Source: a virus. Taken from it: a stretch of DNA of 64,000 nt. The translations under genes were made by a program, and so were the position numbers. The first letter of the stretch is position 1; each line of letters starts with the position of its first letter. The notes beneath the pieces were generated by a model. That model made no database searches and was not told the origin of the DNA. It saw nothing but the letters and a program-made list of their open reading frames with translations. The stretch covers positions 1 through 64,000 of IMG/VR virus record IMGVR_UViG_3300020421_003230. The stretch is one strand, 5' to 3'. This document shows positions 6,265 to 61,500 of the stretch, piece by piece.

Positions 6265-7461
6265 ATGAGTAAAGAATTAATAAAAGAAAAGGAAACCAAT
6301 AATATGAATATTGTTGTAAAAATAGAAAAATCAGGTAATAGGTATAATGCCGTTGATACCAATGGAAATAAATATACATCTTCTATTACCACAGGTGCTC
6401 GTAAGAGGGCCTTTAATAATGGGATGGCTCTTGAACAAAGAGTTAATAAATCTGGTAAAAATTACTGGTGGGCTGTTCCAATGAGTGAGTTCGAAAAAAC
6501 TTCGGCTCCCGTTATTGATGTTTCATCAATCGATGTTCCTGAAGAACATGGTGAGATGTTAAACTTCATTCACTCTTCTTATTCACTTAAACCAGAAGGT
6601 TTGGTGATGAAAGAATTAAAGTGGAAATACTTAATTCGTTCTGCTGTTCGTGGTAAGAACATTCTAATGACCGGCCCGGCTGGTTGTGGAAAAACTATGG
6701 CTGCTAAATCATTGGTTAATTCCCTTGATAGACCAGACTTTTATTTTAACATGGGTTCTACTCAAGACCCAAGAGCTACCTTGATTGGTAATGTTCACTT
6801 TGAGAAATCAAAAGGTACTTACTTTTCAGAATCTCTTTTTGTAAAGGCTATTCAGACTCCAAATGCTGTGATACTTCTTGATGAGTTATCAAGAGCTCAT
6901 CCAGATGCTTGGAATATTCTGATGACTGTTCTCGACCAAGGTCAGAGATACTTGAGATTGGATGAGGCTTCTGGTCAAGAAACTATTCCAGTTGCCGAGG
7001 GTGTTACCTTTGTTGCTACTGCTAACATTGGTAATGAGTACACTTCTACCAGAGTTATGGATAAGGCTTTGATGGACAGATTCACTATCGTTGAGATGGA
7101 TGTTCTAACTGATGAAGAAGAGTTTGGTCTTCTAAGTTATATGTTCCCTCATGTTGACCCTGAGTTGTTGAAGGCTGTTGCTGAGATTGCTCACACTACG
7201 AGAATGGAATCTAAATCTGATTCAGGTAAAGTTTCGACTGGAGTTTCAACAAGAACTTCTGTTGAGATGGCTGGATTGATTTACGATGGTTTCGGAATCG
7301 ATGAGGCTTCTGAAGTTTCTATCTATCCTCAGTTTGCTGATGATGGTGGTGTTGATTCAGAGAGAACTTTTGTAAAACAATTAGTTCAGAAATTCATGAA
7401 CGATGGTTCAGATGAAAACCTCTTCAACGAAGAAGAAGAATCATTTGACTCTATGAGTTAA
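6265..7461 (+). CDS. MoxR/CbbQ/CobS-like AAA+ ATPase
   Basis: Walker A GPAGCGKT, Walker B ILLDELSRA, sensor ATANIG, ALMDRF. Confidence 0.92.
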   Translation: MSKELIKEKETNNMNIVVKIEKSGNRYNAVDTNGNKYTSSITTGARKRAFNNGMALEQRVNKSGKNYWWAVPMSEFEKTSAPVIDVSSIDVPEEHGEMLNFIHSSYSLKPEGLVMKELKWKYLIRSAVRGKNILMTGPAGCGKTMAAKSLVNSLDRPDFYFNMGSTQDPRATLIGNVHFEKSKGTYFSESLFVKAIQTPNAVILLDELSRAHPDAWNILMTVLDQGQRYLRLDEASGQETIPVAEGVTFVATANIGNEYTSTRVMDKALMDRFTIVEMDVLTDEEEFGLLSYMFPHVDPELLKAVAEIAHTTRMESKSDSGKVSTGVSTRTSVEMAGLIYDGFGIDEASEVSIYPQFADDGGVDSERTFVKQLVQKFMNDGSDENLFNEEEESFDSMS

Positions 7462-7471
7462 TAATTTCTTT

Positions 7472-7526
7472 ACCCCGTTTGGGGTTTGGTGGGGTGGTTT
7501 TATTCCTTTCTTTCCCATCCCACCAG
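7472..7526 (+). terminator. GC-rich double hairpin, possible terminator
   Basis: ACCCC-gttt-GGGGT followed by TGGTGGGGTGG...CCATCCCACCA just after the ATPase stop; no clean U-tract. Confidence 0.45.
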
Positions 7527-7620
7527 TAAAACATTTTAGGATTGGAAAAAATATTTTTGATTTTGGAATCAAAAGTATATATGTATATATGAACATAAAA
7601 ATAAATTGGAGAATTGAATA

Positions 7621-7896
7621 ATGAAAAATATAATAAAAAAAGTTTTGGATAGACATAAGGATTCTCAAGGTAACTTGGGTTCCGATTCATTCAGAGATAT
7701 GTTGGCTGTAGAGATTGCTGCTAATCTTGATAAGGGTTTGGCAAAAGATAATCCACTATCAATTGAGATGTGGAAAGGTTATCAAGAAAGTTTTAAAGAT
7801 GTTACTGGCGAACAATTAGAATTAAATTTTGAAGAAACTATCGAATACGAAACTCGTAAAGATATGTTTATGGATAACCCAATAAGGAATAAATAA
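7621..7896 (+). CDS. Hypothetical protein
   Basis: ORF with GGAG RBS. Confidence 0.65.
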   Translation: MKNIIKKVLDRHKDSQGNLGSDSFRDMLAVEIAANLDKGLAKDNPLSIEMWKGYQESFKDVTGEQLELNFEETIEYETRKDMFMDNPIRNK

Positions 7897-9656
7897 TGAA
7901 TATTGAATTATATAATAAGCATGACCTCTTTGAGAAATTAAAGAATACACCTGTACCAATTGAATCATCTTTACGAGATGTATTGATGAACTATTTGCGT
8001 GGTGTTAACTTTGTAAAGGTCGTGATTAATTTTGAAGAAGTATCTCAAGGTGTTTGGAATCTAACACTTTATGATATTAATAATACAGGTAGTACACCAG
8101 ATATTGTTACAGGTCAATTACTTTATGTAGTTGGTGAAGAGAATCGCAATGCTGATGAGGCTGGTAAACTTGGTGTACATGGTGTTGGTCTTGACCAATT
8201 CATTGCTAAGATAACTACACAACAAAGTATTGATAATGGTGGTGGTATTAAAGTATTGACACATCGACATAATACAAATGGTAACGGACACTTCCAATTG
8301 ACTGGTGCTAATCCATGGCGATATGGTAGTGATGATTCAACAGTTGATGTTGATATGAGAACCTTAGATTTAGTTGGTGAATCAGAGATTGATTTTGTAG
8401 ATGGTTTAGAACCTACCGAAAACTATTTGGCTATAGAGATACCAGGTGTTAACTTTGATACATTTGATTTTAGTAGTAAGGAAAATACTACATTAGAAGT
8501 TATGGCTAACATGGTTGCTACTGATTTTGTTAAGGCATTAGATGATAAGGTTATATCATTCCATTTTAGAAAAACCGATATACTTGGTAATACAGAATCT
8601 ATTGATGTTACTGAGGGTGCTAAGTTTGTTGATGAATATGGTAACTTTAAATCATATGGAGAATTGCCTGTTCAAGAATTTGTAACTTCTAAGGAACATA
8701 AATATGTAGGTAGGTTTATTCAATCAAGAGAATTGAATGATACTATCAAACAAGAAGCCAAGAGAAAAGGTTATCGTATCTTTGGTGTTATACCAGAGTT
8801 GAATAGAAAACATGCTGATGATTGGCGTGGATATGTTATTGATACAGAAGCACACTCTGGTGTTATCTTAGGAGAATTTGGTGAAGGTAGAAATGCTGGT
8901 ATACCTTATTCTATTATGTTCTGTGAATGTCCAGTTGCTAATGTTATTACTGATACTAATAAGAATTCAGTTAAGTTAGCAAGTTCTCGTAAGTATAGAG
9001 TTAGTGAGGGAGTTACTACTCCTGTAGTTGGATTAGATGGTAAGAAGTATCGACCAGTAAATAGAATTGGTGATATCAATAAGTTCTTCAAGGCATTTGG
9101 AAAACAATGTAATCCAACACAACAATTCAAAGAAACATCTCGTAGAGATTTAGGTCGTAGATTGCTGATGGGTGAGTTACCTTATTCAGATGATAAGTTT
9201 ACTGTACCTGCTATCTCACCTGCCTTACTTAAAGAATATCTATCTGTTTATAAAATGGATTTGGATAGTGATTTAGATAAGATAAGTTTTCCAAAGGAAG
9301 TTAACTTCTTCAATGGTCGTACTATACTTGACCAAGTTGTTAACAATGGTGTTACTAAGATTGCAAACGAATGGAAGAAAAAAGAATCAGATGTTAAATG
9401 GCATCAGATAATTTCTGAGATTCATGGATTTAAAAAAGAGTATGGAAGTTTTCCAACACACTTTATTATATCTGCAGATTCAGAAGCCGAGAGTATTCCA
9501 ATGGATTACTCAAGTAACTTCGGTGAAGATATTAAAAGTATTGTAGAGGATTTGAAAGATTCATATCCTGATATCACATTTCAATTAGTTGATACACGAT
9601 ACTTCACATTAAACAAGAAGTATAATTACTTCAAAACATACAAACAGGAAAACTAA
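7896..9656 (+). CDS. Hypothetical protein; possibly a divergent GHKL ATPase plus C-terminal PD-(D/E)xK nuclease
   Basis: LRDVLMN, YDINNTG and GKLGVHGVGL resemble GHKL boxes; ILD...IANEWKK...WHQI resembles a D..ExK..Q nuclease site. Confidence 0.45.
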   Translation: MNIELYNKHDLFEKLKNTPVPIESSLRDVLMNYLRGVNFVKVVINFEEVSQGVWNLTLYDINNTGSTPDIVTGQLLYVVGEENRNADEAGKLGVHGVGLDQFIAKITTQQSIDNGGGIKVLTHRHNTNGNGHFQLTGANPWRYGSDDSTVDVDMRTLDLVGESEIDFVDGLEPTENYLAIEIPGVNFDTFDFSSKENTTLEVMANMVATDFVKALDDKVISFHFRKTDILGNTESIDVTEGAKFVDEYGNFKSYGELPVQEFVTSKEHKYVGRFIQSRELNDTIKQEAKRKGYRIFGVIPELNRKHADDWRGYVIDTEAHSGVILGEFGEGRNAGIPYSIMFCECPVANVITDTNKNSVKLASSRKYRVSEGVTTPVVGLDGKKYRPVNRIGDINKFFKAFGKQCNPTQQFKETSRRDLGRRLLMGELPYSDDKFTVPAISPALLKEYLSVYKMDLDSDLDKISFPKEVNFFNGRTILDQVVNNGVTKIANEWKKKESDVKWHQIISEIHGFKKEYGSFPTHFIISADSEAESIPMDYSSNFGEDIKSIVEDLKDSYPDITFQLVDTRYFTLNKKYNYFKTYKQEN

Positions 9657-9941
9657 ATGAATCATTCATTTGAAAAGTACTTACTGATAGCTGATGCTAA
9701 GACCGGTCCATTGATTGGTAGTTACGAAGGCTTTATTAATGTACAAGAAGTTATTGATATTTTAGAAACGATATCTCAAAATCGAAATACTTCATATTTA
9801 TATAATGGTGAGTTGATTAAAGTTAAACTTACGATTAGTGAAATCAATACTATATTAAAATGTTGGGAAGACGGAAAATATAGTCCTGGTTTTAACAAAA
9901 TCAAAGTACTTGCTCATCAATTAGGAATCAGAAAAATATAA
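9657..9941 (+). CDS. Hypothetical protein
   Basis: ORF abutting the upstream stop. Confidence 0.6.
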   Translation: MNHSFEKYLLIADAKTGPLIGSYEGFINVQEVIDILETISQNRNTSYLYNGELIKVKLTISEINTILKCWEDGKYSPGFNKIKVLAHQLGIRKI

Positions 9942-9991
9942 ATAAGTAGAGGATAATAATTCTCTTGGTTGATTACAATAGGAGAATTATT

Positions 9992-10486
9992 ATGGGTAAG
10001 AAATTAGATGTTCGTGAATATCAATGCGAATTAATTAAAGTTTTAGATGGAGATACAATCGATTGTTATATTGATTTAGGTTTCAATTTAAAAACTAAAA
10101 AACGAGTTAGATACATGGGTATCGATACTTGGGAATCTCGTACAAGAGATTTAGATGAGAAGGCAAAAGGATTACTTGCTAAAGGTAGAAATAAGGAGTT
10201 ATTAGAACAAGGTGTTTTTAAACTTAAATCATTCGGAACTGGTAAGTTCGGAAGAGTACTCGGAGAAGTATTTGTTGCACCAGACTTTGTGGGTGAACAT
10301 ATCAACGAGTGTATTTCTAATCCTGATAGTGCTATTGACCTTAGTGTTGATGGATGGGTATCAGTTAATGATATCTTAATCGAAGAAGGTCATGCCTATG
10401 AGTATGGTGGTGGAAAGAAAAAGGATTTTAAAAATGAAGTCAAAGAAGAAAAAGCAAAACAAGAAAACGACCCAAAAGCTGTTTGA
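9992..10486 (+). CDS. Thermonuclease (SNase-like)
   Basis: KVLDGDTI, RVRYMGIDTWE and GKFGRVLG; start moved to the ATG with an AGGAG RBS. Confidence 0.9.
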   Translation: MGKKLDVREYQCELIKVLDGDTIDCYIDLGFNLKTKKRVRYMGIDTWESRTRDLDEKAKGLLAKGRNKELLEQGVFKLKSFGTGKFGRVLGEVFVAPDFVGEHINECISNPDSAIDLSVDGWVSVNDILIEEGHAYEYGGGKKKDFKNEVKEEKAKQENDPKAV

Positions 10487-10594
10487 GGTCGTAACAGAAC
10501 TACAGAAGAGTAAGGATGAGGTATATGATATAGTTTGTCCTTACGCTACTGAAACAACAACAATGAGTTATAACAAAATACAATGGAGTAGATA

Positions 10595-10873
10595 ATGAAT
10601 GATAATGTAAGATTTCTATATTTCAGTGCAGAATGGTGTGGGCCATGTAAGGCATTCAAACCAGCAGTTGAAAAATTAGAAGAAGCAGGATATCCTGTAT
10701 ACTTTGCGGATATCGATGAAGACCCTGTGTTAGCAGAATCACATCAGATTCGTGGAGTACCATCAATACTAATTGAACAAGATGGGAAGATAGTTGAGAG
10801 AATGGTTGGTGTACAAGACCCAATTACTTTAGCAGCTAAGTTCCAAATGTATAGTCCTATAGAAGAGGAGTAA
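10595..10873 (+). CDS. trxA: Thioredoxin
   Basis: AEWCGPCK active site; IRGVP cis-Pro loop. Confidence 0.93.
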   Translation: MNDNVRFLYFSAEWCGPCKAFKPAVEKLEEAGYPVYFADIDEDPVLAESHQIRGVPSILIEQDGKIVERMVGVQDPITLAAKFQMYSPIEEE

Positions 10874-10877
10874 TACA

Positions 10878-11057
10878 ATGATAAAGGTTCTGGTGGAACA
10901 TGACTTCCCTACAATAGAGGGAATGATTTACAAAGGAACAAAACTATCAGTAGATGAATCAGAGTTTAATTCTAAACAACATGATGAGAAAGTTAAAGGA
11001 TTAGATGGCATGGGTAAGATAGTTTGGGTTCCAAAAAAAATGTTAAAAAAAATGTAA
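10878..11057 (+). CDS. Hypothetical protein (59 aa)
   Basis: Below ORF-track cutoff: MIKVLVEHDFPT...KIVWVPKKMLKKM*; GAGGAG RBS. Confidence 0.65.
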   Translation: MIKVLVEHDFPTIEGMIYKGTKLSVDESEFNSKQHDEKVKGLDGMGKIVWVPKKMLKKM

Positions 11058-11192
11058 TTTTATAAGGTTTCTATATACTTATATATGTAGAATAAAATCT
11101 ATGCACTAATGTGATAGATTCTACAATAATTGTATTGCTCAAATGAGGATACAAGTTGAACGAAAAGTTAACTAACAACAAGGAGAAATAAA

Positions 11193-11666
11193 ATGACTAA
11201 GTTCGTTATTAATCACAAGGTTCCTGTAATAGGCAGGGACGAATTCTTAACCCCATTCGACAGAATGTTTGACCAATTAATCAATACTCAATTTCCTGAG
11301 ATTGAAAAGCAAGTTGGTGTTAAACCATTTCAAGGTACAGCATATCCAAAAGTAAATGTATATGAATACGATGACAAAGTTGGTGTTATTGCTGAGATAC
11401 CTGGATTAGATAAAAAAGATTTATCTATAGATGTAGAAGATGGTGTATTAACAATTGCTGGAAACAAACATGGGTTGTTTGATGATGAGGGTGCTAAAGT
11501 AATTCGTAAAGAATTAAAACAATCATCTTTTAAACGACAGTTCGAATTAGGGGATTTACTCAATGGTGATAAAGTAAAGGCTACATTTAAAGATGGTCTA
11601 CTTTCTATTGAGATACCAAAAATAGAACCAGAAAAACCAAAGAAGACTTCTGTCAAGATTTCCTAA
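11193..11666 (+). CDS. Small heat-shock protein (Hsp20/alpha-crystallin)
   Basis: YPKVNV, AEIPG, DGVLTI, FKRQF and ATFKDGLLSIEIPK motifs. Confidence 0.95.
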   Translation: MTKFVINHKVPVIGRDEFLTPFDRMFDQLINTQFPEIEKQVGVKPFQGTAYPKVNVYEYDDKVGVIAEIPGLDKKDLSIDVEDGVLTIAGNKHGLFDDEGAKVIRKELKQSSFKRQFELGDLLNGDKVKATFKDGLLSIEIPKIEPEKPKKTSVKIS

Positions 11667-11856
11667 ATTAGTCTCAGTAGGAAACGATAGATATGCCGTT
11701 CTCGGAACAGCAAAGGTTGATTCTGGTTATTCTCCCGAACAATTAAAACTCCAGTATGGATTAGCTGATACTGTTCTGAGGAACGGTGATGTCTATTATA
11801 TCTGCTATAAGATATTAGAAGCAGAGTTTGAAGAATTAGATAATCAAGAAACATAA
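11650..11856 (+). CDS. Hypothetical protein, possible CTG start
   Basis: Open frame SRFPKLVSVGNDRYAVLGT...YICYKILEAEFEELDNQET*, bounded upstream by TAG at 11623; no ATG/GTG/TTG available. Confidence 0.5.
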   Translation: MSRFPKLVSVGNDRYAVLGTAKVDSGYSPEQLKLQYGLADTVLRNGDVYYICYKILEAEFEELDNQET

Positions 11857-11863
11857 TAGAGTC

Positions 11864-12150
11864 GTGATTTCTTGTTACCACTTAGGTGGGTTGTTATTTT
11901 CGGAATGTGGTGAAAAGGATTCGGATAAGTGACCGAACGAAAGTCCCGATGAGATAGTGCTCATCAGTCCAAAGATAAGTTCCATTGGGGAACTTTAGGA
12001 TTTACAAAAAAGTCATCGGGAGATACCCTAACGAAATAGAAGAATGTTTCTATTTCATGATGAAAATAGGGATACTGTAAGTTAGGCTGGGTTGTAGACC
12101 AGAGATGCAGTATACCGCTGTAGTTTGATTTTTGATATAGCAATAATCAT
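11864..12150 (+). ncRNA. Unassigned structured RNA, about 290 nt
   Basis: No sizeable ORF; GC-richer than flanks; 5' and 3' ends pair; at least seven internal helices; terminator immediately after. Confidence 0.65.
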
Positions 12151-12152
12151 AG

Positions 12153-12176
12153 AATAGGAAATTAATTCCTATTTTT
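12153..12176 (+). terminator. Intrinsic terminator
   Basis: AATAGGAA-attaa-TTCCTATT followed by TTT. Confidence 0.6.
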
Positions 12177-12203
12177 ACACGCTCGGAGAGATACTTATTA
12201 TAT

Positions 12204-12740
12204 ATGGATGAATTAAAGTTATTACATCAAAAGAAAGTTCGGCAACAATTAAGATTTCTACAATTAGAATTAGAAGAAACAAAAGTAGTATATAATAGAT
12301 GTGTAGAAAAATTCAATAATGATTTCAGAAACTTTATGTTAGAGAATCCATCTGAATTCCAAAAGAATGAAAAGCATGTTCCAGAAGATGAGAACTTGAA
12401 GTTGGAAACAGATGTTGATGATGATACATTTAAAAAGGTATATCGAAAGGTTGCTGGTAAAACACATCCTGATAAAGGTGGAGATGGTGATGAGTTCAAG
12501 AAGGCCAACGAAGCTAATAAGAATAAAGATTTAGGTGCTCTCATGGAGATGGCAGATGATTTAGGAATAGAAGTTCCTATGGATGAAGAGATGTTAGGTA
12601 GCATGAGAAAACAAACTACGGCTATAGTTAAAACGGTTGAGAAGTTAAAGACCACTATGGCTTGGGCTTGGGTACATACACCTAAAGAACAGAAGAAAGA
12701 TTTAAAACAATATATTTTACATCAATTACAGATGTTGTAG
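12204..12740 (+). CDS. J-domain-like protein (DnaJ-type co-chaperone)
   Basis: FKKVYRKVAGKTHPDKGGDGDEFKKANEA, containing the HPD motif. Confidence 0.8.
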   Translation: MDELKLLHQKKVRQQLRFLQLELEETKVVYNRCVEKFNNDFRNFMLENPSEFQKNEKHVPEDENLKLETDVDDDTFKKVYRKVAGKTHPDKGGDGDEFKKANEANKNKDLGALMEMADDLGIEVPMDEEMLGSMRKQTTAIVKTVEKLKTTMAWAWVHTPKEQKKDLKQYILHQLQML

Positions 12741-12766
12741 ATATTTATATAATAATAGAGGTTAAT

Positions 12767-12955
12767 ATGAGAAACAGAAATAAGATATTAGATTTAATTG
12801 ATACAGTTGGTGAAGAGATAGATAGACTCTATTCTCGTATACCAGAGGATTTTAATGATGAAGCTAATCTTCAATTAAGAATGATTCGTGGAATTAAAAA
12901 ACAATTAGACCTGATACAGAACTTCGTTGAATTAGAAGACGACGGAATTCAATAA
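12767..12955 (+). CDS. Hypothetical helical protein
   Basis: ORF with GAGG RBS. Confidence 0.6.
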   Translation: MRNRNKILDLIDTVGEEIDRLYSRIPEDFNDEANLQLRMIRGIKKQLDLIQNFVELEDDGIQ

Positions 12956-12968
12956 CAGGAGAAGTTAA

Positions 12969-13895
12969 ATGGAACGCTCTGAGAATTTCCATATATACTT
13001 GGGAATTGCTGCGTTACTTATAGCTGGAAGTGCTGCATTCTTTTCAGTATTCGGTTTAAGTAAACTTTTTGCAGGAGCAGCATTTAGTGTAATCATCATG
13101 GCAGGTTCGTTAGAATTTGGTAAGTTGGTTACCGCCGCATTCGTATATCGTTATTGGGATAAGATTAATATATTCCAAAGAACTTATTTAATGACCGCAG
13201 TTGTAACATTAGTATTGATTACATCTGCTGGTATATTTGGTTATTTATCTAACGCCTATCAAGGTGCTACGGTTTCCTTTGAGAAACAAACTAATCAATT
13301 ACTCGCCTACGAGGATAGGTTAGAACAATTAGTAGAAGATAAATCATTTCTAAAAGAAGAGTTAGAAGTACAGGTAAATGATTTACCTGAAAACTACATA
13401 ACAGCAAAACGAAAACTAAGAGAAGAATATAATCCACGAATACAACAAGTTAATGATGAGATACTTAATGTCAAGGGTAGGATAGGTGATTTAAAAGTTG
13501 AGTTGGTTGAAACAGGAGTTGATGTTGGACCGGCAATCTATCTGGCAAGAGTATTCGGTACGGATGTAGATACAATTGTAAAGTTCTTTATCTTTATTCT
13601 TATCTTTGTGTTTGACCCATTAGCAGTAATGTTAGTGGTTGCATTTAATCAAGCACTTATACTTAGAGAAGAAAACGATAGTTCTAAAAAAGGTAATCAG
13701 GTAAACTTGATTACCAAGAAAGAAAAATCATGGTGGAAGTTTTGGGAAATGTATGGTGAAGATGAAAAAGAAAAAACTCAAACAGAACATTGGCAAGATA
13801 TATACAATGAACCAATTGATGTAGATGATTTACCAGAAATAGAAGATAAAACTTCTAAAAATAATATTGGTAGAGATGGAGTAAAACCTACATAA
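12969..13895 (+). CDS. Membrane protein with coiled coil (conserved in large myophages)
   Basis: Three N-terminal TM segments (MAGSLEFGKLV, TSAGIFGYLS), a coiled coil, then TM FVFDPLAV. Confidence 0.75.
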   Translation: MERSENFHIYLGIAALLIAGSAAFFSVFGLSKLFAGAAFSVIIMAGSLEFGKLVTAAFVYRYWDKINIFQRTYLMTAVVTLVLITSAGIFGYLSNAYQGATVSFEKQTNQLLAYEDRLEQLVEDKSFLKEELEVQVNDLPENYITAKRKLREEYNPRIQQVNDEILNVKGRIGDLKVELVETGVDVGPAIYLARVFGTDVDTIVKFFIFILIFVFDPLAVMLVVAFNQALILREENDSSKKGNQVNLITKKEKSWWKFWEMYGEDEKEKTQTEHWQDIYNEPIDVDDLPEIEDKTSKNNIGRDGVKPT

Positions 13896-13977
13896 TCAAA
13901 TTTTTCCGCTTTATATATTGTATTTATTAGTAAGAACCCAAGTTACAATTAACCAAACAAACATAGGGGATGTTACT

Positions 13978-14808
13978 ATGAGTAGAAAACAAAAAGTACA
14001 AACTATTACAAAGGTTGCAAGTAACCAAGAATGTCAAAACCATCGTCAAGCATTATCACAGATGAAACGAATCAGATGGAATTTCAAACCTAAATCAAGA
14101 AACCAACAATCCTTTTGGGATGGTATAGATTCTAATACTATTACATTTTGTGTTGGGCCTGCAGGATGTGGTAAAACATATGTTGCTACATATTGGGCAC
14201 TACAGAATCTTGTAAACAAGAACACAAATTATGATGGTATCATTATTACTAAACCAATGGTAGAAGTTGATGGTGAGAGAATTGGATATCTGCCTGGTGA
14301 TATTGATGAGAAAACCGAACCATTTATGCAATCTGTTTATTATAACATGGAACAGATTATTGGTAAATCAAGAATGGAAGTTCTGAGAAAAGCTGGTATA
14401 ATAAAAGTTATACCACTTGCATATATGAGAGGTTTAACATTACAGAATAAAATTGTAATGTTAGATGAAGCACAAAATTCAACACCATCACAAATTAAAA
14501 CTTTCTTAACGAGAATTGGAATGGGTTCTAAATATATCGTTAGTGGAGATTTACAACAAAGTGATTTAAGAACTAAATCTGATAATGGATTAGAAGATTC
14601 AATAAAAAGATTTACAGGTGTTTATGGATGTGGATTCTGTCAATTTGATTTACAAGATATTGTTCGACATCCAATCGTATCTGATTTATTACATCGATAC
14701 AATGATTTCGATATATCAGAAGATGTGGAGGCAGAAGTAACATTAAGTAAATGGTTAAAGAAACCTACTTATGAGATACCTAAGTTTGGATATTGGGAGA
14801 AAAATTAA
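13978..14808 (+). CDS. phoH: PhoH-like ATPase
   Basis: GPAGCGKT, GYLPGDI, AYMRGLT, DEAQN, GDLQQSD and DIVRH motifs. Confidence 0.95.
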   Translation: MSRKQKVQTITKVASNQECQNHRQALSQMKRIRWNFKPKSRNQQSFWDGIDSNTITFCVGPAGCGKTYVATYWALQNLVNKNTNYDGIIITKPMVEVDGERIGYLPGDIDEKTEPFMQSVYYNMEQIIGKSRMEVLRKAGIIKVIPLAYMRGLTLQNKIVMLDEAQNSTPSQIKTFLTRIGMGSKYIVSGDLQQSDLRTKSDNGLEDSIKRFTGVYGCGFCQFDLQDIVRHPIVSDLLHRYNDFDISEDVEAEVTLSKWLKKPTYEIPKFGYWEKN

Positions 14809-14811
14809 TTT

Positions 14812-14855
14812 AAAAAAAGACTTGACTTATATAGTATTTCTTTCGTACCTTTAGG
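14812..14855 (+). promoter_or_regulatory. Conserved early-type promoter, copy 4
   Basis: TTGACT (14822-14827), 18 bp spacer, TACCTT-TAGG. Confidence 0.78.
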
Positions 14856-14861
14856 TATATT

Positions 14862-15386
14862 ATGAAAGGAAATATTATGAATAAGAAAACCGTTATTTTT
14901 GACTTGGACGGGACTCTTGCTAACATTGATGTTAGGAGAGATAGGTCAGTAAAACCGAATGGTAAACTTAATTGGGATATCTTTGCATCTCCTGATTCTA
15001 TTCTTCATTGGGATACACCAAATGCTCCTGTAATTATGATGGCTCAGATGTTCCACCAACAAGGATTCAAGATTGTTATCTTTAGTGGTAGGAATGATAG
15101 AGGTTTCTTCGCGACCAAAGAATGGTTGAAGAAACACGATGTACCATTTGACCTTTTGGTTCTTAGACCCGATAAGTTCAAAGACCATTCATGGCCTATT
15201 GCCGATGGTAATCCAGCCACTTTCGATATGAGGTTTATGCCTGATGAAATCCTTAAGAAAAAAATGCTTGATACTTTCGTAGATATCAACGATGTATTTC
15301 TTGTGGTTGATGATAGGGATAAAGTTGTAAAGATGTGGAGAGATTTAGGTCTTAACACTTTCCAAGTGGCTCCTGGTGATTTCTAA
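14862..15386 (+). CDS. HAD-family phosphatase (PseT/PNK 3'-phosphatase-like)
   Basis: IFDLDGTLA, FSGR and VDDRDKVVKMWRDLGL motifs. Confidence 0.88.
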   Translation: MKGNIMNKKTVIFDLDGTLANIDVRRDRSVKPNGKLNWDIFASPDSILHWDTPNAPVIMMAQMFHQQGFKIVIFSGRNDRGFFATKEWLKKHDVPFDLLVLRPDKFKDHSWPIADGNPATFDMRFMPDEILKKKMLDTFVDINDVFLVVDDRDKVVKMWRDLGLNTFQVAPGDF

Positions 15387-15896
15387 ATGAATTGTTCAGT
15401 ATGTGAAAATCGAATTGATAATCATCGAGCCCACTTGGGATTTACTGAGTGTACTGATTGTAGTGAAGTAGAAAAGTATTCTGCTCATGTTGTGTATCCA
15501 CATAAGACTGGTGCATTTGTACAACCTGTATCTAAAACTGCATCCAAGAATCTTAAGAAAATTGATAGAAGAAGTACAGGTGGAACTCGTACTGCCAAAG
15601 GTATTTATGTAGATAATAGTTGGGATAGATATCTAAAATCACTTGAGAATCCACCACCAGAAAAGAAGAAGTTTGTACCTAAAAAAGTTTCATATAATCA
15701 CAGGTCATATGAATTAGTTGCATGGACTTGTATAGATTATTATATAAATAATGGTTATGAACCAGCATTAGATTTTGTAAAAGAATTGTATAAAACTGAT
15801 AAAATTACTATGATGACTAAAACTCGTATCGTTAATGATATCACTAACTTACAGGTATTACCTCGTAGGATGAGAAAAAAAGTTTTAAAAAAATGA
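15387..15896 (+). CDS. Hypothetical protein with N-terminal C4 zinc finger (DksA/TraR-like spacing)
   Basis: CSVC...RAHLGFTECTDC. Confidence 0.65.
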   Translation: MNCSVCENRIDNHRAHLGFTECTDCSEVEKYSAHVVYPHKTGAFVQPVSKTASKNLKKIDRRSTGGTRTAKGIYVDNSWDRYLKSLENPPPEKKKFVPKKVSYNHRSYELVAWTCIDYYINNGYEPALDFVKELYKTDKITMMTKTRIVNDITNLQVLPRRMRKKVLKK

Positions 15897-15940
15897 AAAA
15901 AAGACTTGACTTATATATAAATTATTTCGTACCTTTAGGG
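15896..15940 (+). promoter_or_regulatory. Conserved early-type promoter, copy 5
   Basis: TTGACT (15906-15911), 18 bp spacer, TACCTT-TAGG. Confidence 0.78.
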
Positions 15941-15967
15941 GTAAATTAAATAAAGGAAAAAAACAAT

Positions 15968-16243
15968 ATGACATATGTATTTGAAAAAGAAACATCTATG
16001 GGAACCTTAGTGGTAGAATATGTTCTATCATCGGTTACTGAGATGGTAAAGGTTGTTGAGATGACACTCAATGGCGAGTTTCATAGGACTAATTGGATGA
16101 GTAAACAAGGCCAGTTAGAATTGAATGATGAGTTAGAGAGGGATTTATTAGATAGGGCTTGTAAGACTGGAATTCATTCACCTATGAGTGATGACGAGGA
16201 AAATTATTTAGTAGGTAAAATGGAGTTTGCATATGGGTTATAG
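15968..16243 (+). CDS. Hypothetical protein
   Basis: ORF directly after promoter; AAGGA RBS. Confidence 0.7.
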   Translation: MTYVFEKETSMGTLVVEYVLSSVTEMVKVVEMTLNGEFHRTNWMSKQGQLELNDELERDLLDRACKTGIHSPMSDDEENYLVGKMEFAYGL

Positions 16244-16358
16244 TAATTTTCTAATGAGGAAAAAGATAAAATCGTTCTTTTATGGAGTAGGTGAATTCCT
16301 AACTTTATTGTGGATATTTTTTGTTTTTTACATTTTAATGATTATGGTTAATATTTAA
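16233..16358 (+). CDS. Small membrane peptide
   Basis: MGYSNFLMRKKIKSFFYGVGEFLTLLWIFFVFYILMIMVNI*; fills the gap. Confidence 0.4.
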   Translation: MGYSNFLMRKKIKSFFYGVGEFLTLLWIFFVFYILMIMVNI

Positions 16359-16362
16359 TAAC

Positions 16363-16632
16363 ATGGAACAATCTTTAATAGATTATATTATAGAAGTTTT
16401 CGATGGTGTGGTTATCGATGATTATGGTTGGGAACATTACACCATCAAGGGTAAGAAGTACGATATCAGATTTGACCCTTCAAGAATAGAGTGGGCATGT
16501 GATTGTCCCGCATTTGTATATCGTAGAAAGTTTAAAAGAAAGTATTGTAAACATATACTTGAAGTGCAAGATAAGAAACTTAAACAACGAGTGGCAACCA
16601 ACAGAGGCCGTGCTGGTGCCAGAGTGGTTTAA
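16363..16632 (+). CDS. SWIM zinc-finger protein
   Basis: WACDCPAF...YCKHI (CxC-xn-CxH). Confidence 0.8.
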   Translation: MEQSLIDYIIEVFDGVVIDDYGWEHYTIKGKKYDIRFDPSRIEWACDCPAFVYRRKFKRKYCKHILEVQDKKLKQRVATNRGRAGARVV

Positions 16633-16683
16633 TGGGGTGGATTGCAAATCCATTGTTCGTAGGTTCGAATCCTATCCAGCACT
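16610..16683 (+). tRNA. tRNA-Cys (GCA)
   Basis: Acceptor stem GTGCTGG/CCAGCAC, anticodon arm GTGGA-TTGCAAA-TCCAT, T-arm GTAGG-TTCGAAT-CCTAT, U discriminator; CCA not encoded. Confidence 0.92.
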
Positions 16684-16701
16684 CAAAATTTGGAGAGATG
16701 A

Positions 16702-16938
16702 ATGAAGATTGTAGACTTAGTTAATAAGTTAGAAGAGATAGAAAAAGAATCAAAAGGAAAAGCGAAAGAATTGTGTGGACTTTTGATTGATGATTTAATT
16801 GAATATGATTTAGAGATGTCTAAGTTTATGAGTAAGGTAAATCGAGATGTAATGAAATCGATGGACCGAGAAGATGAAAGTTTAATAGATTATTTAATTA
16901 GCCAAGGAATCCAAAGTGGTTCTATTGGGGAAGCGTAA
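16702..16938 (+). CDS. Hypothetical protein
   Basis: ORF with GGAG RBS. Confidence 0.65.
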   Translation: MKIVDLVNKLEEIEKESKGKAKELCGLLIDDLIEYDLEMSKFMSKVNRDVMKSMDREDESLIDYLISQGIQSGSIGEA

Positions 16939-16953
16939 TAAAGGAGAAGTTAC

Positions 16954-17415
16954 ATGGGTAAATTTGAAGATAATGGTGGTTACTTTATTGATGGTGTACC
17001 TTATATGGATTGTAAAATCACAGGCATACCAGTAAAGAATGTAAGTACTGATGCTACCTCTGTTATTGGAGATAAAGCATTGATGAGTAGGATGCATAAA
17101 ATGTTTCCTGAAACACTTGATAAGGCTATGGCTCAACCAAGAAAGAAAACAGGCAGGCCTGCTGGATGGCATTTCATGAATGAATTTGTAGATAAAGATG
17201 GTAATGTATTTCATAAGGGTAAAGAGCAACCTAAGTTAAAGGGTACACTTAAACCTACTAAGGTGAAACCACCTAAGAAGAAAAAGAAACGAAAAACTCG
17301 TGATGAGATACTTGTTGCGAAACATAAAGAAAAGTTAGCAGCTCAAAGAAAACAAAAACGAGAGTTGGCTAAAGAGTTGAAAAAACAAAAAGATTTTCTT
17401 AACCATAAAGTATAA
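16954..17415 (+). CDS. Hypothetical basic protein
   Basis: GRPAGWHFMNEFVDKDGNVFHKG core and Lys-rich tail; AAGGAG RBS. Confidence 0.75.
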   Translation: MGKFEDNGGYFIDGVPYMDCKITGIPVKNVSTDATSVIGDKALMSRMHKMFPETLDKAMAQPRKKTGRPAGWHFMNEFVDKDGNVFHKGKEQPKLKGTLKPTKVKPPKKKKKRKTRDEILVAKHKEKLAAQRKQKRELAKELKKQKDFLNHKV

Positions 17416-20685: not shown

Positions 20686-21272
20686 TAGCACAGAGTTTAT
20701 TAAGTGGGTTGGTATTGTTCACATCATTCAGTATGAGAACACCTAACGATGAATCCATTGGTGTAGATGATTACGAAGTTGCATTAGGTTTTAGAAGTGA
20801 AAACATATACTTCAAGAGAGATTGGGAACGAGAGTTAGGACAATCTTATATTGATGATGAAGTATGGTTTGAATGGGAACCTAAGAACTTTTATTTTAAA
20901 CCACAATATGTTAATAAAACATCTCGTGATTTACAATATGGTAAGGCTGATGTTCGTTATCGTAATGGTGATTACTCAATTGGTTACACAGGATTATTTG
21001 CAGATGATAAATTTGAAAGTGGTTTATCTGTAGGTATCCAAAGGAAGAAAGAAATTTCAGATAAGTTCTCAATGGAAGTTAAATGGGATGGATATTGGTT
21101 TCGTGATGAATTGACTGGGTATAGTAGATTCGACATGGAAGATTATGCAAAAATTAATTGGAAATTATCTGATAAGTTGATACTTACTAATATCTTTGAT
21201 TACAATGATATCAAGGGTAGGAAGTATTATAAATTTAGCGTAGGAGTAGAGTATGAGCTTGGCAGAAATTAA
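20682..21272 (+). CDS. Putative outer-membrane beta-barrel protein
   Basis: Hydrophobic N-terminus, aromatic-rich amphipathic strands, C-terminal FSVGVEYEL. Confidence 0.6.
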   Translation: MIAQSLLSGLVLFTSFSMRTPNDESIGVDDYEVALGFRSENIYFKRDWERELGQSYIDDEVWFEWEPKNFYFKPQYVNKTSRDLQYGKADVRYRNGDYSIGYTGLFADDKFESGLSVGIQRKKEISDKFSMEVKWDGYWFRDELTGYSRFDMEDYAKINWKLSDKLILTNIFDYNDIKGRKYYKFSVGVEYELGRN

Positions 21273-21405: not shown

Positions 21406-21750
21406 GGGGCTGAACGGATTCGACAGCTATCGTAGATGTTTAAGTGCAACGAGGTTTGAACAAGACCTGCTAAAAAAGGTTCACTTTGTTTAATTGGCAC
21501 ACAGTTCAATTACGCTTACGCTTAATGTGTAAGGCTCGTTCCATGACTCAGATAATGGGTAACGGGTTCAGATATCTGAAAAGAACTCACTTTAGTTAGA
21601 GGGAAGTTAGTGATTAAAGAAACTACCAGTTCTCAAGACCTGTATATAACTTGATAAGGGTTGTTGGTAACACATTCGGAACCATCTAAAGTTGTAAACG
21701 ACTTAACTTTGAAAGTAGTATGGACGGGGGTTCGATTCCCCCCAGCTCCA
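21406..21750 (+). ncRNA. ssrA: tmRNA
   Basis: 5' GGGGCTG-AACGGATTCGAC; 3' GGACGGGGGTTCGATTCCCCC-CAGCTCCA with a G3:U acceptor pair; probable tag reading frame GTQFNYAYA* at 21496-21525. Confidence 0.95.
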
Positions 21751-21805
21751 CTTAAAAAAGTTACAAAAAAAACGAAATAATCTCAATGAAAGGAGATATT
21801 TATAT

Positions 21806-58504: not shown

Positions 58505-61500
58505 ATGGCAATATTAAAACGAATCAACAAATATCAAGGATTGAAGGACATTGATGTTTTAGTAGATGAGAAAGGATTAAGTTCTCAGTACTTTAATATC
58601 ACACAAGTTCCTACATCTTTCCCACAAGGAAGGTCTACCTTTATAATCGGTGGTTCGCCTTTCTTAAAAAATAATGTAGAACTTAAAATAGAGATATTAG
58701 ATTCTAAGGGTAAGACTGTTTATACAGAACCTATTACAAATTATCTTGAAGGTGATGGTAGAAGAGTAAGTGTAGAAATATATAACGATACATCACCTGG
58801 TGATTGTTTCTTATATGTTGTAGGTGAATTAAAAGATAATTACAAAAGTGTTTCTGCTCTTAATGAAAGTGTAGAAGATATTACCGACCAAATGCCTGAG
58901 ATGGAATTTGATGCATTTGATGGAAGTACTCAAGATGTACCATCAGAGTTTCAAGGTGTTTATAATGTACGATATTCAAGACCTATTAGTATCAGTACAA
59001 CAATTCCAAATAGTGAACCGATATTATTTTATAACCAACCAAGAGTTACAGTATCTGAAATATTAAAAGGATATGTAGTAGAGGTTCCTGTATCATCATC
59101 AGTACAGATAACAGGAAGTGCAGAATTTAAACCACAACCAAATTTACAACCTTTACCACCTGTACCTGAACCAGACCCAAATGGGTTTCCAATTATTGAT
59201 ACAAGTACAAGAGAAGATGTTGGTAAATCATTAGAAATATTTAAGAATCGCAGAAGTTCTAAAATAGAACCATTAAGATTCAGTAACTTTAAATCTCGTG
59301 GAAGAATCATGAGAAGAAGTTCACCTGAGATAGATAGAAATGAAATTATAATAGATTCATTAGAAACAGGTGAGGGAGTTGATGCAGATAAAGCTTCAAG
59401 TCAATTTGTTGGTGGTAATATTACAATTAATAATCCAAAAGTTGATTTTAGTAAACTACCTGGTGATGAGAGTAGATATACGATACCTGATAAATACGAA
59501 TCACAAATATCTAAAGTAAAGAATGAAAAAACAATTGTTCCTTTAGATGATTTTTTAATTACAGATAATGAAACAGGTGAAAGAATACCAATTGATATCA
59601 AACCTAATACAGAGGTTACGATGTCTTATGTTCCTACACCAGACCCTTCAATAAGTACAACACACTTCAGAGCATTCGCAGATATAACTCTTGGTAACTT
59701 AACCACATTTAGTGGTGATGTTTATAAGGCTAAGATTTCTGCTAGAAGTAGAGGAACACTTGGTGATTTTGAAACATTATATGATTCAACAATTGAAGCA
59801 CCAACTGTTTTAATAGATACATTCAGTCCAACAGGATTTAAAAATGTAGGTTACTTTTATACGGGTTCAATCATATCTGATTATTGGGATGTTTCAAATG
59901 GAACGGCAACTATAGATAATAGTAAGATGATTGATTCGGTATTGATTAGTGGTTCGAATCAAGGATTTACACCAGGTGTTGGTGATAGTACAAGTGGGCC
60001 AGTAACGAGTGATAGAAATGCAGTTATATTTGCTACATCACAAAGTTACGATTTAGAAAAGAATGTACCATATACGGTTTCATTCGATGCCTATTATTAC
60101 ACAGGCCCAAAACAAATGTCCCAAGATGGTGGAGTACAACAACATGCTGAGTTAGAAGTTATTGTAAGTGGTTCTGCAAGATTAGGAAATACAAATGAAG
60201 ATTATTCATTAGGTAAGGTAGAAGTTCCAACCAATACCACAGAGGGTGAAATAAAAGGAATACACAATACCTTTGTATCATCCACAACAGGAGACCCTAA
60301 ACTACGATTAAAATTTAAAGCAACTGCTGGTCAATGGATTATACATGATGTAGAAATAAAACCTTATAGTGAAACAAACTTTAATCCTGATTACTTCAGA
60401 ACGATTCTACCGATGCCACATCCAATGCCTAAGAAACCTGATAGTTATGATTTCTTAGTAGAGTTCTTTGATGTAAATAATAATATTGCTGAAACCATTG
60501 TAGTTAAAGAAGAAGTACCTTTTGCTGGTGCTCCTATAAACATTGATGGTGATGGTAACTTACTTAGTGGTTCTATGTATCTTGGTAATACTGAGGGTAG
60601 TGGTATTGAGATGCATGGTGGTTCTGCTTATCTAAGAAGTATTGGATATGATGGGTTTGATAACACTATAGCAAGTGGTAGTGGTGGATTTTTAATATTT
60701 AGTGGTTCTGTTGGGGATAGATTAAATTCTTCTGAAGATTATCAAGGTGTTGGTTTAGAAATAGTTGATGCTCATGGGGCAACAAATAGATTTATGAAAT
60801 TTAGAACAGACCCGAGTACATTCCAAGTACAAACGGATGAGTTCTTTTTAGGTAGTACATCACAATTTGTTAGTGGTAGTAATGGTAACATAGAAATTAG
60901 TTCAAGTAATTTCCACTTATCACCTGATGGTGATGTTACTATGGCAGGTACGATTAGTGCAACTGCTGGTAACATTGGAGATTTCCAAATTGTAAATGGA
61001 CAGATTAGTGGTAGTAACATTACTATGAATGCTACTCGTTCACAAATATTTAAAACAGACCAGGGTCCTGGTTCAGATACTTCAGCAGTTTTTGAAAACT
61101 TAAGAGATGAGTATTATATAGATTTTACACCAAGTGAAAGTATAGATAAAGTAAATAATTATCGACCTGGTTATTACATCAAGATGGGGCCAAACTTCAT
61201 GGTGGATAAAGATGGTATCTTGATTGCAAGTGGTGCAACATTCGAGGGTAGTATTACAGCATCTGCTGGTTTAATTGGTGGGTTCACAACGGATTCACAT
61301 TCGTTTAGTAGTAATAATATTTTTATTAGTGGTTCACCTGAAGTTGGTGGTATTGATGATTCTAAATATATGTTTATCAGTACATCAAAGTTTAATGTTA
61401 AACAAGATGGTAGTGTAACAGGTAGTGAATTTTTATTAGAGGGTGGTACAATTACTGATAATGTTACGATACTTGGTTCAGTATCTGCTAACTCTATTTT

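Follow-up and report, generated by a model that had tools for sequence, protein, structure and literature searches.

An uncatalogued, modular structured-RNA family predicted downstream of hsp20 in uncultured marine myovirus-like phages

What lies between hsp20 and the next large gene of this phage: spacer, or a structured RNA, and if an RNA, of what kind and with what role? The window, i.e., the 64,000-nt stretch analysed here, forms the opening 64 kb of a viral record 122 kb long, estimated to be 67% complete. All its open reading frames of at least 150 aa are on the plus strand except one (61174-61674), which is nested in a larger plus-strand gene. On this strand, which also bears the RNA and every part of it described below, hsp20 (11193-11666; Pfam HSP20, 1.1e-20) is followed by a small conserved ORF of 63 aa (11665-11856) that is in the +1 frame and overlaps the hsp20 stop codon; tblastn found this ORF 3' of hsp20 in 74 of 80 related loci. 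It contains no in-frame ATG, GTG or TTG after the upstream in-frame stop at 11623-25, and may have an unusual start or be reached by reinitiation or a frameshift out of hsp20. Next come a J-domain-like gene (12204-12740; DnaJ 27.3 bits, slightly below the Pfam cut-off of 27.8), two more ORFs and then phoH; the genes adjoining the RNA are of the chaperone type. In a comparison of baseplate wedge proteins, the nearest cultured phages were Microcystis phage Mel-JY01, at 49%, and Flavobacterium phage immuto, at 40%.

On the folding and comparative evidence, a structured RNA of ~332 nt is predicted to be genuinely present on the plus strand at 11845-12176. The minimum free energy of this strand is -94.6 kcal/mol, against -72.7 ± 5.7 for shuffled sequences (z = -3.9), and none of 100 shuffles folded as well, which bears out the first-pass annotation in its claim of a multi-helix RNA downstream of hsp20. 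That annotation had set the borders at 11864-12150; the RNA is there, but its 5' border moves to 11845 and its 3' border to about 12176. These predicted ends, from the H0 hairpin to the U-run of a terminator, come from the terminator and from matches to two covariance models described below, R2 (11845-11946, 80.9 bits) and R1 (12023-12154, 76.9 bits). The minus strand gave z = -5.9, as is expected of any strongly paired stretch; the excess of G.U over A.C cells in paired columns (172 vs 69) indicates the plus strand. Each pairing of the window copy was verified letter by letter with a script.

Comparison with catalogued RNAs, a check that the first-pass annotation had proposed, returned no known family. 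The RNA was unmatched when the 64-kb window was searched with Rfam at gathering score; at E ≤ 10 the stretch 11600-12300 matched no family (the three matches listed were far under their gathering scores), and at E ≤ 1 nothing was found inside the RNA in ten member loci (58,310 bases). Neither manA (RF01745) nor wcaG (RF01761) was among the Rfam matches of the window, of 11600-12300 or of the ten member loci. A tRNA or tmRNA was rejected because ARAGORN found no such gene in 11600-12400 and because the phage-encoded full-length tmRNA (21406-21753; Rfam model, 101.7 bits) and tRNA (16610-16683; Rfam model, 62.4 bits) of the window sit elsewhere. A literature search found no published account of the RNA, with the proviso that supplementary lists may contain such motifs; the accessible part of PMC9004378 deals with a different phage group and does not mention the RNA family of 11845-12176. 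By these comparisons the RNA is a putative uncatalogued family that has no Rfam counterpart.

Relatives came from two routes. DNA searches of a phage record collection gave no match for 11850-12200 in distant mode or for 7000-17000 in near mode. With hsp20 as anchor, 80 viral loci were collected independently of any conserved-stretch pattern, and the RNA was then sought in them with blastn and nhmmer; 17 bear it, 16 clearly and one as a diverged, weak match (L012). A pattern taken from the most conserved stretch added three viral contigs and at least 117 metagenome stretches, and at least 93 of the newly gathered loci carry both the conserved 5' block and the 3' block. After removal of loci whose copy runs off the contig, complete copies stood at no fewer than 108 loci, with at least 73 distinct sequences; the 73 distinct copies listed comprise 37 short forms of ~215 nt and 36 long forms of 290-340 nt. 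The pattern used for most members included UAGGC..GGUUGUAGAC and UAUAG, so that the invariance of these letters is partly by construction; the single-stranded motif GAAAGUCC lay outside every search pattern later than a 15-letter one. That 15-letter pattern, built around GAAAGUCC, returned 48 stretches in which blastn and nhmmer found no family member and which we read as chance. An exact 17-letter pattern gave 11 stretches, one of them (L140, GC-rich) a chance match. The J-domain-like protein, tried as an anchor, led to 42 pattern matches and no relatives.

The conserved-stretch pattern was also run against genomes of 185,579 species, where it matched 15 places, none with the 5' block; two of these stretches (L315, L319) gave a weak match, at the pattern itself only. 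Since the cellular matches lack the 5' block, we read them as chance. The RNA thus appears only in viral and marine metagenome contigs, its absence from cellular genomes applying to this pattern only. Neither cultured relative, Flavobacterium phage immuto or Microcystis phage Mel-JY01, was matched by R1 or R2.

For structural comparison, the RNA was divided at the long-form insert site and the halves were aligned separately (alignments A2 and A4). One locus was left out because its copy is cut at the contig end (L132), another was left out of A2 and A4 for an anchor-motif mismatch and kept in the model searches (L262), and a third was left out of A4 for a duplicated block (L250). R1 and R2 were built with helices read from the sequences, and 73 sources were re-aligned to them. 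All 73 distinct sources match both models, and in the entire 122-kb record each model finds one place only, this RNA. Both domain models match the window copy in order on one strand, with helices X, H4 and H5 present; the window belongs to the seed of R1 and R2, and its membership in the family therefore holds by construction.

In the 3' domain, the paired share of cells is 88.2% (shuffles, 72.1%), and two-sided changes are seen at 18 of 27 pairs. Across the 73 distinct relatives covariation scores 0.449; shuffles score 0.164, none of the 500 attaining the observed value, and sliding the partners gives 0.05-0.10. The homologue test proposed in the first-pass annotation thus came out in favor of a conserved fold. 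In the 5' domain, two-sided changes occur in 9 of 17 pairs, compared with 4.8 in shuffles (0 of 500); its 'further pair types' are not above shuffles (123 of 500 reach the value). The model-based alignments, A3 and A5, were fitted to the structure and are biased towards it, and two structure-free checks were added for this reason. RNAalifold on the unfitted MAFFT alignment A2 recovered H4 only; it missed X and H5 because MAFFT sets their strands out of register. An alignment-free test favored both of these helices, strands from the same molecule pairing at -11.0 kcal/mol (X) and -8.0 kcal/mol (H5), against -7.0 and -3.1 kcal/mol for non-cognate strands. Taken together, compensating changes support six predicted helices (H0, H1, H2, X, H4, H5) and a small loop contact, PK0. 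Beyond the known helices, a mutual-information scan over both domains found only signals that track the two main subgroups. With its strong covariation, its lack of an Rfam match and its restriction to viral and marine metagenome contigs, the RNA fits the earlier suggestion of a new phage noncoding RNA.

The comparative analysis thus identifies 11845-12176 as a predicted member of an uncatalogued, modular structured-RNA family of uncultured marine myovirus-like phages. The predicted core of the family is three 5' hairpins (H0, H1 and H2), the near-invariant GAAAGUCC, and a 3' domain (X, H4 and H5). H0 (11845-51/11868-74) has seven Watson-Crick pairs in the window, two-sided changes at three of six pairs, and, by eye in the alignments, at least four distinct helix sequences among relatives (in a shifted subgroup, AU 48 and GC 7). 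Its loop holds the stop codon of the small ORF (11854-56), and three loop nucleotides, UCG (11862-64), would form PK0 with CGG (11901-03) in block B. Of 65 distinct rows, 60 have CG and 5 have GC as the middle pair of PK0, and no row leaves it unpaired; this variation probably reflects one or two events, a small effect. H1 (CCAC/GUGG, 11878-81/11886-89) shows two-sided changes at three of five pairs, with variants such as CCCAA/UUGGG and ACCC/GGGU in relatives. Block B (11890-11919), which contains the 3' side of PK0, is a purine-rich joiner conserved in A4, as is the 8-nt loop of the next hairpin, H2 (UUCGG/CCGAA, 11920-24/11933-37), in which 97.5% of cells are paired and three of six pairs change on both sides. 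GAAAGUCC (11939-46) follows, its columns invariant or near-invariant in A4.

In the 3' domain, helix X (12072-78/12107-13) has two-sided changes at seven of eight pairs, and encloses an invariant UUAGGC, the hairpin H4, and the 3' side of a proposed pairing across X, PK1, that would make a pseudoknot (CCUAAC, 12027-32, with GUUAGG, 12081-86). Four pairs of PK1 are invariant, and the fifth, over 64 rows, is AU 44 times and UA 3 times, with 17 rows unpaired; its 3' side lay within the search pattern and its 5' side in none. A PK1 pseudoknot fitting every member is possible, not proven, and both long-range contacts, PK0 and PK1, are likely ones of which we are less sure than of the helices. H4 (CUGG/CCAG, 12087-90/12099-102) has two-sided changes at two of four pairs; on the unfitted alignment, two-sided changes that keep the pair occur in 33 and 26 of 72 sequences. 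The invariance of its loop, GUUGUAGA, is partly by construction because the loop sat in the search pattern. H5 (12126-34/12141-49) changes on both sides at eight of nine pairs, and its loop, AUAUAG (12135-40), contains the self-complementary UAUA.

Two fixed sites are predicted to accept optional domains, and both are occupied in the window copy, a long form. The first, a 'type A' insert (11944-12021), is absent from the 37 short forms and present in ten type A relatives; its ten distinct sequences are 96% alike. Its closing helix (11944-52/12013-21) carries two compensatory changes, and its inner helix (11966-70/11998-12002) one paired insertion, when the window is compared with the others. 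Between the strands of the inner helix is a conserved hairpin, AAGTTCC/GGAACTT (11977-83/11989-95), in which no two-sided change was seen among relatives. The second optional element is a hairpin, GAAATAGA/TCTATTTC (12033-41/12048-56), found in a minority of members; relatives have, by eye, a different self-complementary sequence at this site. Other long forms (L003, L022 and L039 among them) carry a second insert type; it includes an additional hairpin whose 8-letter loop, GUUGUAGA, is that of H4, and some members therefore display this loop twice.

Most helices that had been read from the single sequence survive this comparison. The relatives support CCAC/GTGG and TTCGG/CCGAA, which are H1 and H2, as well as GAAATAGA/TCTATTTC; CTGG/CCAG, which is H4, covaries; CCCGATGA/TCATCGGG stands as the closing helix of the type A insert, lengthened to 11944-52/12013-21 and backed by its two compensatory changes; and AAGTTCC/GGAACTT is present and conserved, minus any two-sided change. 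Three proposals gave way to other pairings. The strands of a supposed closing stem (11864-77/12138-50) belong to two local hairpins, 11868-74 pairing with 11845-51 in H0 and 12141-49 with 12126-34 in H5. The local partner in CCCTA/TAGGG is missing from the closest relative with the same insert (L302), and this pairing is displaced by PK1. As for TGCAG/CTGTA, 12107-13 is instead in the covarying helix X with 12072-78. RNAalifold on short forms suggested two further pairings that we rejected: one closing the 5' on the 3' end (H0 3' strand with GGAAG after H5), which lacks covariation, and one of CGG with UCC, which is contradicted by members having CCG.

The type A insert raises the question of a sensor or switch, responding to a ligand, to temperature or to translation, that would set read-through of the terminator into the next gene. 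As had been noticed, GATGAG (11948-53) can alternatively pair with CTCATC (11960-65) in a local hairpin that is conserved in the ten type A relatives; 11948-53 thus has two mutually exclusive partners, each conserved. In many members the H0 3' strand can likewise pair with a GGAA-type stretch after H5 (RNAalifold, by eye), and the adjoining genes are of the chaperone type. Against a switch, the alternative pairings have no covariation of their own, the bistable insert is missing from short forms, and the gene that follows differs between members and is preceded by a promoter-like block of its own. C11947 of the window pairs with G12018 where relatives have U-A, whereas in the local hairpin this C faces an A as a C.A mismatch; the long-range helix is therefore the better supported of the two. 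We consider a switch quite improbable.

A second possibility is a reduced RNase P RNA. The hairpin followed by GAAAGUCC resembles, in what we take to be the standard picture, the P3/CR-I region of bacterial RNase P, but the echo that the first-pass annotation had remarked on amounts to no more than eight letters. CCUAAC/GUUAGG could also mimic part of P4 (CR-I ..AAGUCC.. with CR-V and a bulged U). Membership in the RNase P family does not follow, however. RNase P models (bacterial A and B, archaeal, type T) were unmatched in the window at gathering score, in 11600-12300 at E ≤ 10 and in ten member loci at E ≤ 1. P4 was rejected because the next C and U belong to H4: the U after GGC, which a P4-like extension would use, covaries with its H4 partner (column pair 80/94: GC 31, UA 27, CG 6). 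Nor does the strand order agree with P1-P2-P3...P2'-P4'-P1' plus a specificity domain, the short forms having ~10 nt there. A reduced RNase P is, on this evidence, scarcely credible.

A ribozyme of another kind would have the candidate pseudoknotted core as its catalytic center, and would cleave itself or process precursors of the phage tRNA and tmRNA, both of which this phage encodes. A conserved core with optional peripheral domains at fixed sites, and invariant single-stranded stretches such as GAAAGUCC, are in keeping with this. So is the order of strands if PK1 forms (a, b, a', hairpin, b'): the group I intron core, with its P3-P7 pseudoknot and P8, presumably has the same order as X, PK1 and H4, namely first helix 5', second helix 5', a joiner of 2-3 nt, first helix 3', a hairpin, and second helix 3'. 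A group I intron itself was rejected because the RNA is intergenic, its short forms have no equivalent of P4-P6, and Rfam intron models were unmatched; in syntenic loci that lack the RNA, the flanking reading frames are unchanged apart from the tail of the small ORF. Weighing against ribozymes in general, all Rfam ribozyme families were unmatched, and the short forms have ~10 nt at the place of the group I P4-P6 domain. A ribozyme accordingly seems to us improbable.

Comparison of loci shows that the RNA travels in a cassette, RNA plus terminator plus restart promoter, with syntenic relatives that do without it. The terminator-like hairpin (12151-60/12166-75, with a U tract to 12176), seen by folding and script-checked, agrees with the terminator of the first-pass annotation; a consensus terminator scan that requires three G-C pairs did not flag it. 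Close relatives have a different hairpin and U-run at this site, and many short forms have no evident terminator after H5. At the 3' edge, ahead of the J-domain-like gene, is a promoter-like site (TTTACA, 16 nt, TATTAT; 12174-12201), one of seven in the region where 9.8 are expected, i.e., not above chance. In family members the RNA is followed by a terminator or a conserved spacer, then by a conserved promoter-like block (..ACGC..GATACTTATTA) ahead of the next gene. This block (ACGC, 6-8 nt, GATACTTATTA; 12174-12203, compared in L002-L039) ends a few bases before the ATG in some members, and the short gap suggests a nearly leaderless message. Resembling 11-mers occur at 21179, 22377, 28889, 43478 and 54174; the 11-mer count of seven is equalled by 12 of 100 shuffles and does not exceed chance.

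In RNA-bearing loci the small ORF (elsewhere the J-domain-like gene) extends through the 5' strand of H0 and terminates inside the hairpin loop; of 67 distinct rows, 41 have an open frame of at least 40 codons that ends 1-8 nt past that strand. Where the gene order is kept but the RNA is lacking (L009, L016), the small ORF stops a few codons sooner, and the next gene begins 8 nt past it. Because H0 covaries, the transcript would have to start upstream of 11845, within the preceding ORF. A sigma-70-type promoter before the RNA (TTGAAG, 18 nt, CATAAT; 11828-57) was rejected as the sole start since its transcript would lose the covarying H0 5' strand. On the downstream side, members differ as to the next gene, some having the J-domain-like gene and others a 308-aa ORF, and the RNA is therefore not the leader of one particular gene; a riboswitch or leader of the downstream gene was rejected on this ground and because the promoter-like block intervenes. 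The J-domain-like gene follows the RNA in the subgroup of the window, precedes it in another subgroup and is missing from a third (L005, L006, L018), where the RNA persists; this gene is therefore not an obligate partner.

Four RNA libraries, from four studies, supplied two contigs that lie on the RNA. One of 270 nt covers 11702-11971 and bridges the ORF and the 5' half of the RNA; another of 181 nt, from a different study, covers 12006-12186. Both are low-depth, all four runs leave parts of the RNA uncovered, and two runs (X18, X19) cover neighboring genes only. The RNA is thus weakly indicated to be transcribed, and co-transcribed with the small ORF, the indication being weak because RNA libraries can contain DNA. 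Sequence like hsp20 (window 11281-11581) is present in contigs from three of the four libraries (X15, X17, X19), whose depth cannot rank expression; several of these contigs have many differences and therefore derive from related phages.

These features are also what would be expected of a cis-acting 3'-end module, which would shield the hsp20/small-ORF message from 3' exonucleases or act as an insulator that terminates one transcript and restarts the next. H0 spans the upstream stop codon, the frame ends 1-8 nt past the H0 5' strand in those 41 of 67 rows, the cassette has a terminator and a promoter-like block, and an RNA-library contig bridges ORF and RNA. At 215-340 nt, with conserved loops, likely PK0 and PK1 contacts and optional domains, the RNA nevertheless far exceeds the needs of a protective hairpin; besides, many short forms have no obvious terminator after H5, and syntenic phages manage without the RNA. 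We regard a cis role at the message 3' end as the main rival, and as somewhat unlikely.

The reading that we modestly favor is that this uncatalogued cassette RNA is made as a message tail and persists as a stable, free-standing, trans-acting RNA. We propose this origin, at the 3' end of the hsp20/small-ORF message (an early chaperone-gene message), because H0 spans the ORF stop codon. The tail would then persist as a stable folded RNA, whose rigid core may hold out the invariant loops for docking by a protein or by further copies of the RNA, and which would act in trans rather than on a neighboring gene. We infer the trans role in preference to a cis role from the size, the conserved loops, the optional peripheral domains with their fixed sites, and the independence from neighbors; as a counterpoint, the overlap of H0 with the ORF end and the built-in terminator fit a cis role equally well.

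Such a trans-acting RNA would have parallels among phage RNAs. In the accessible parts of the respective preprints, GOLLD and ROOL, which are linked to phages and prophages, form RNA-only multimers (bioRxiv 10.1101/2024.12.08.627333), and multimers of the cyanophage motif manA are held by kissing loops (bioRxiv 10.64898/2026.07.01.735769). Like these orphan RNAs, the window RNA has a large, conserved, multi-helix, phage-borne fold with invariant loops; it differs in that it matches their Rfam models in neither sequence nor structure, and it is smaller than GOLLD and ROOL. That copies of the RNA might multimerize via the UAUA of the H5 loop is pure conjecture. A bolder reading would make the RNA a new ocean-phage machine produced early alongside the chaperone genes, either a pseudoknot-core ribozyme with swappable domains or a loop-multimerizing RNA, whose contacts would by conjecture be the H5 loop with its UAUA and the GUUGUAGA hairpin in its one or two copies; this we think unlikely.

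The family is common in ocean samples (at least 117 metagenome stretches) and compact enough for probing and cryo-EM, and its natural short and long versions mark core and optional parts. It adjoins chaperone-type genes in phages whose nearest cultured relatives lack the RNA, and solving its job could reveal a new aspect of host takeover by marine phages. To our knowledge, large RNAs with folds kept by evolution are rare, and each class that has been solved revealed new biochemistry.

The diverged relative among the hsp20-anchored loci (L012, 2303-2587) matches R2 at 34 bits and R1 at 31 bits, and has, by eye, compensated changes in H0 and PK0 and a differing hairpin loop, which hints that the family may be wider than the set collected by pattern.
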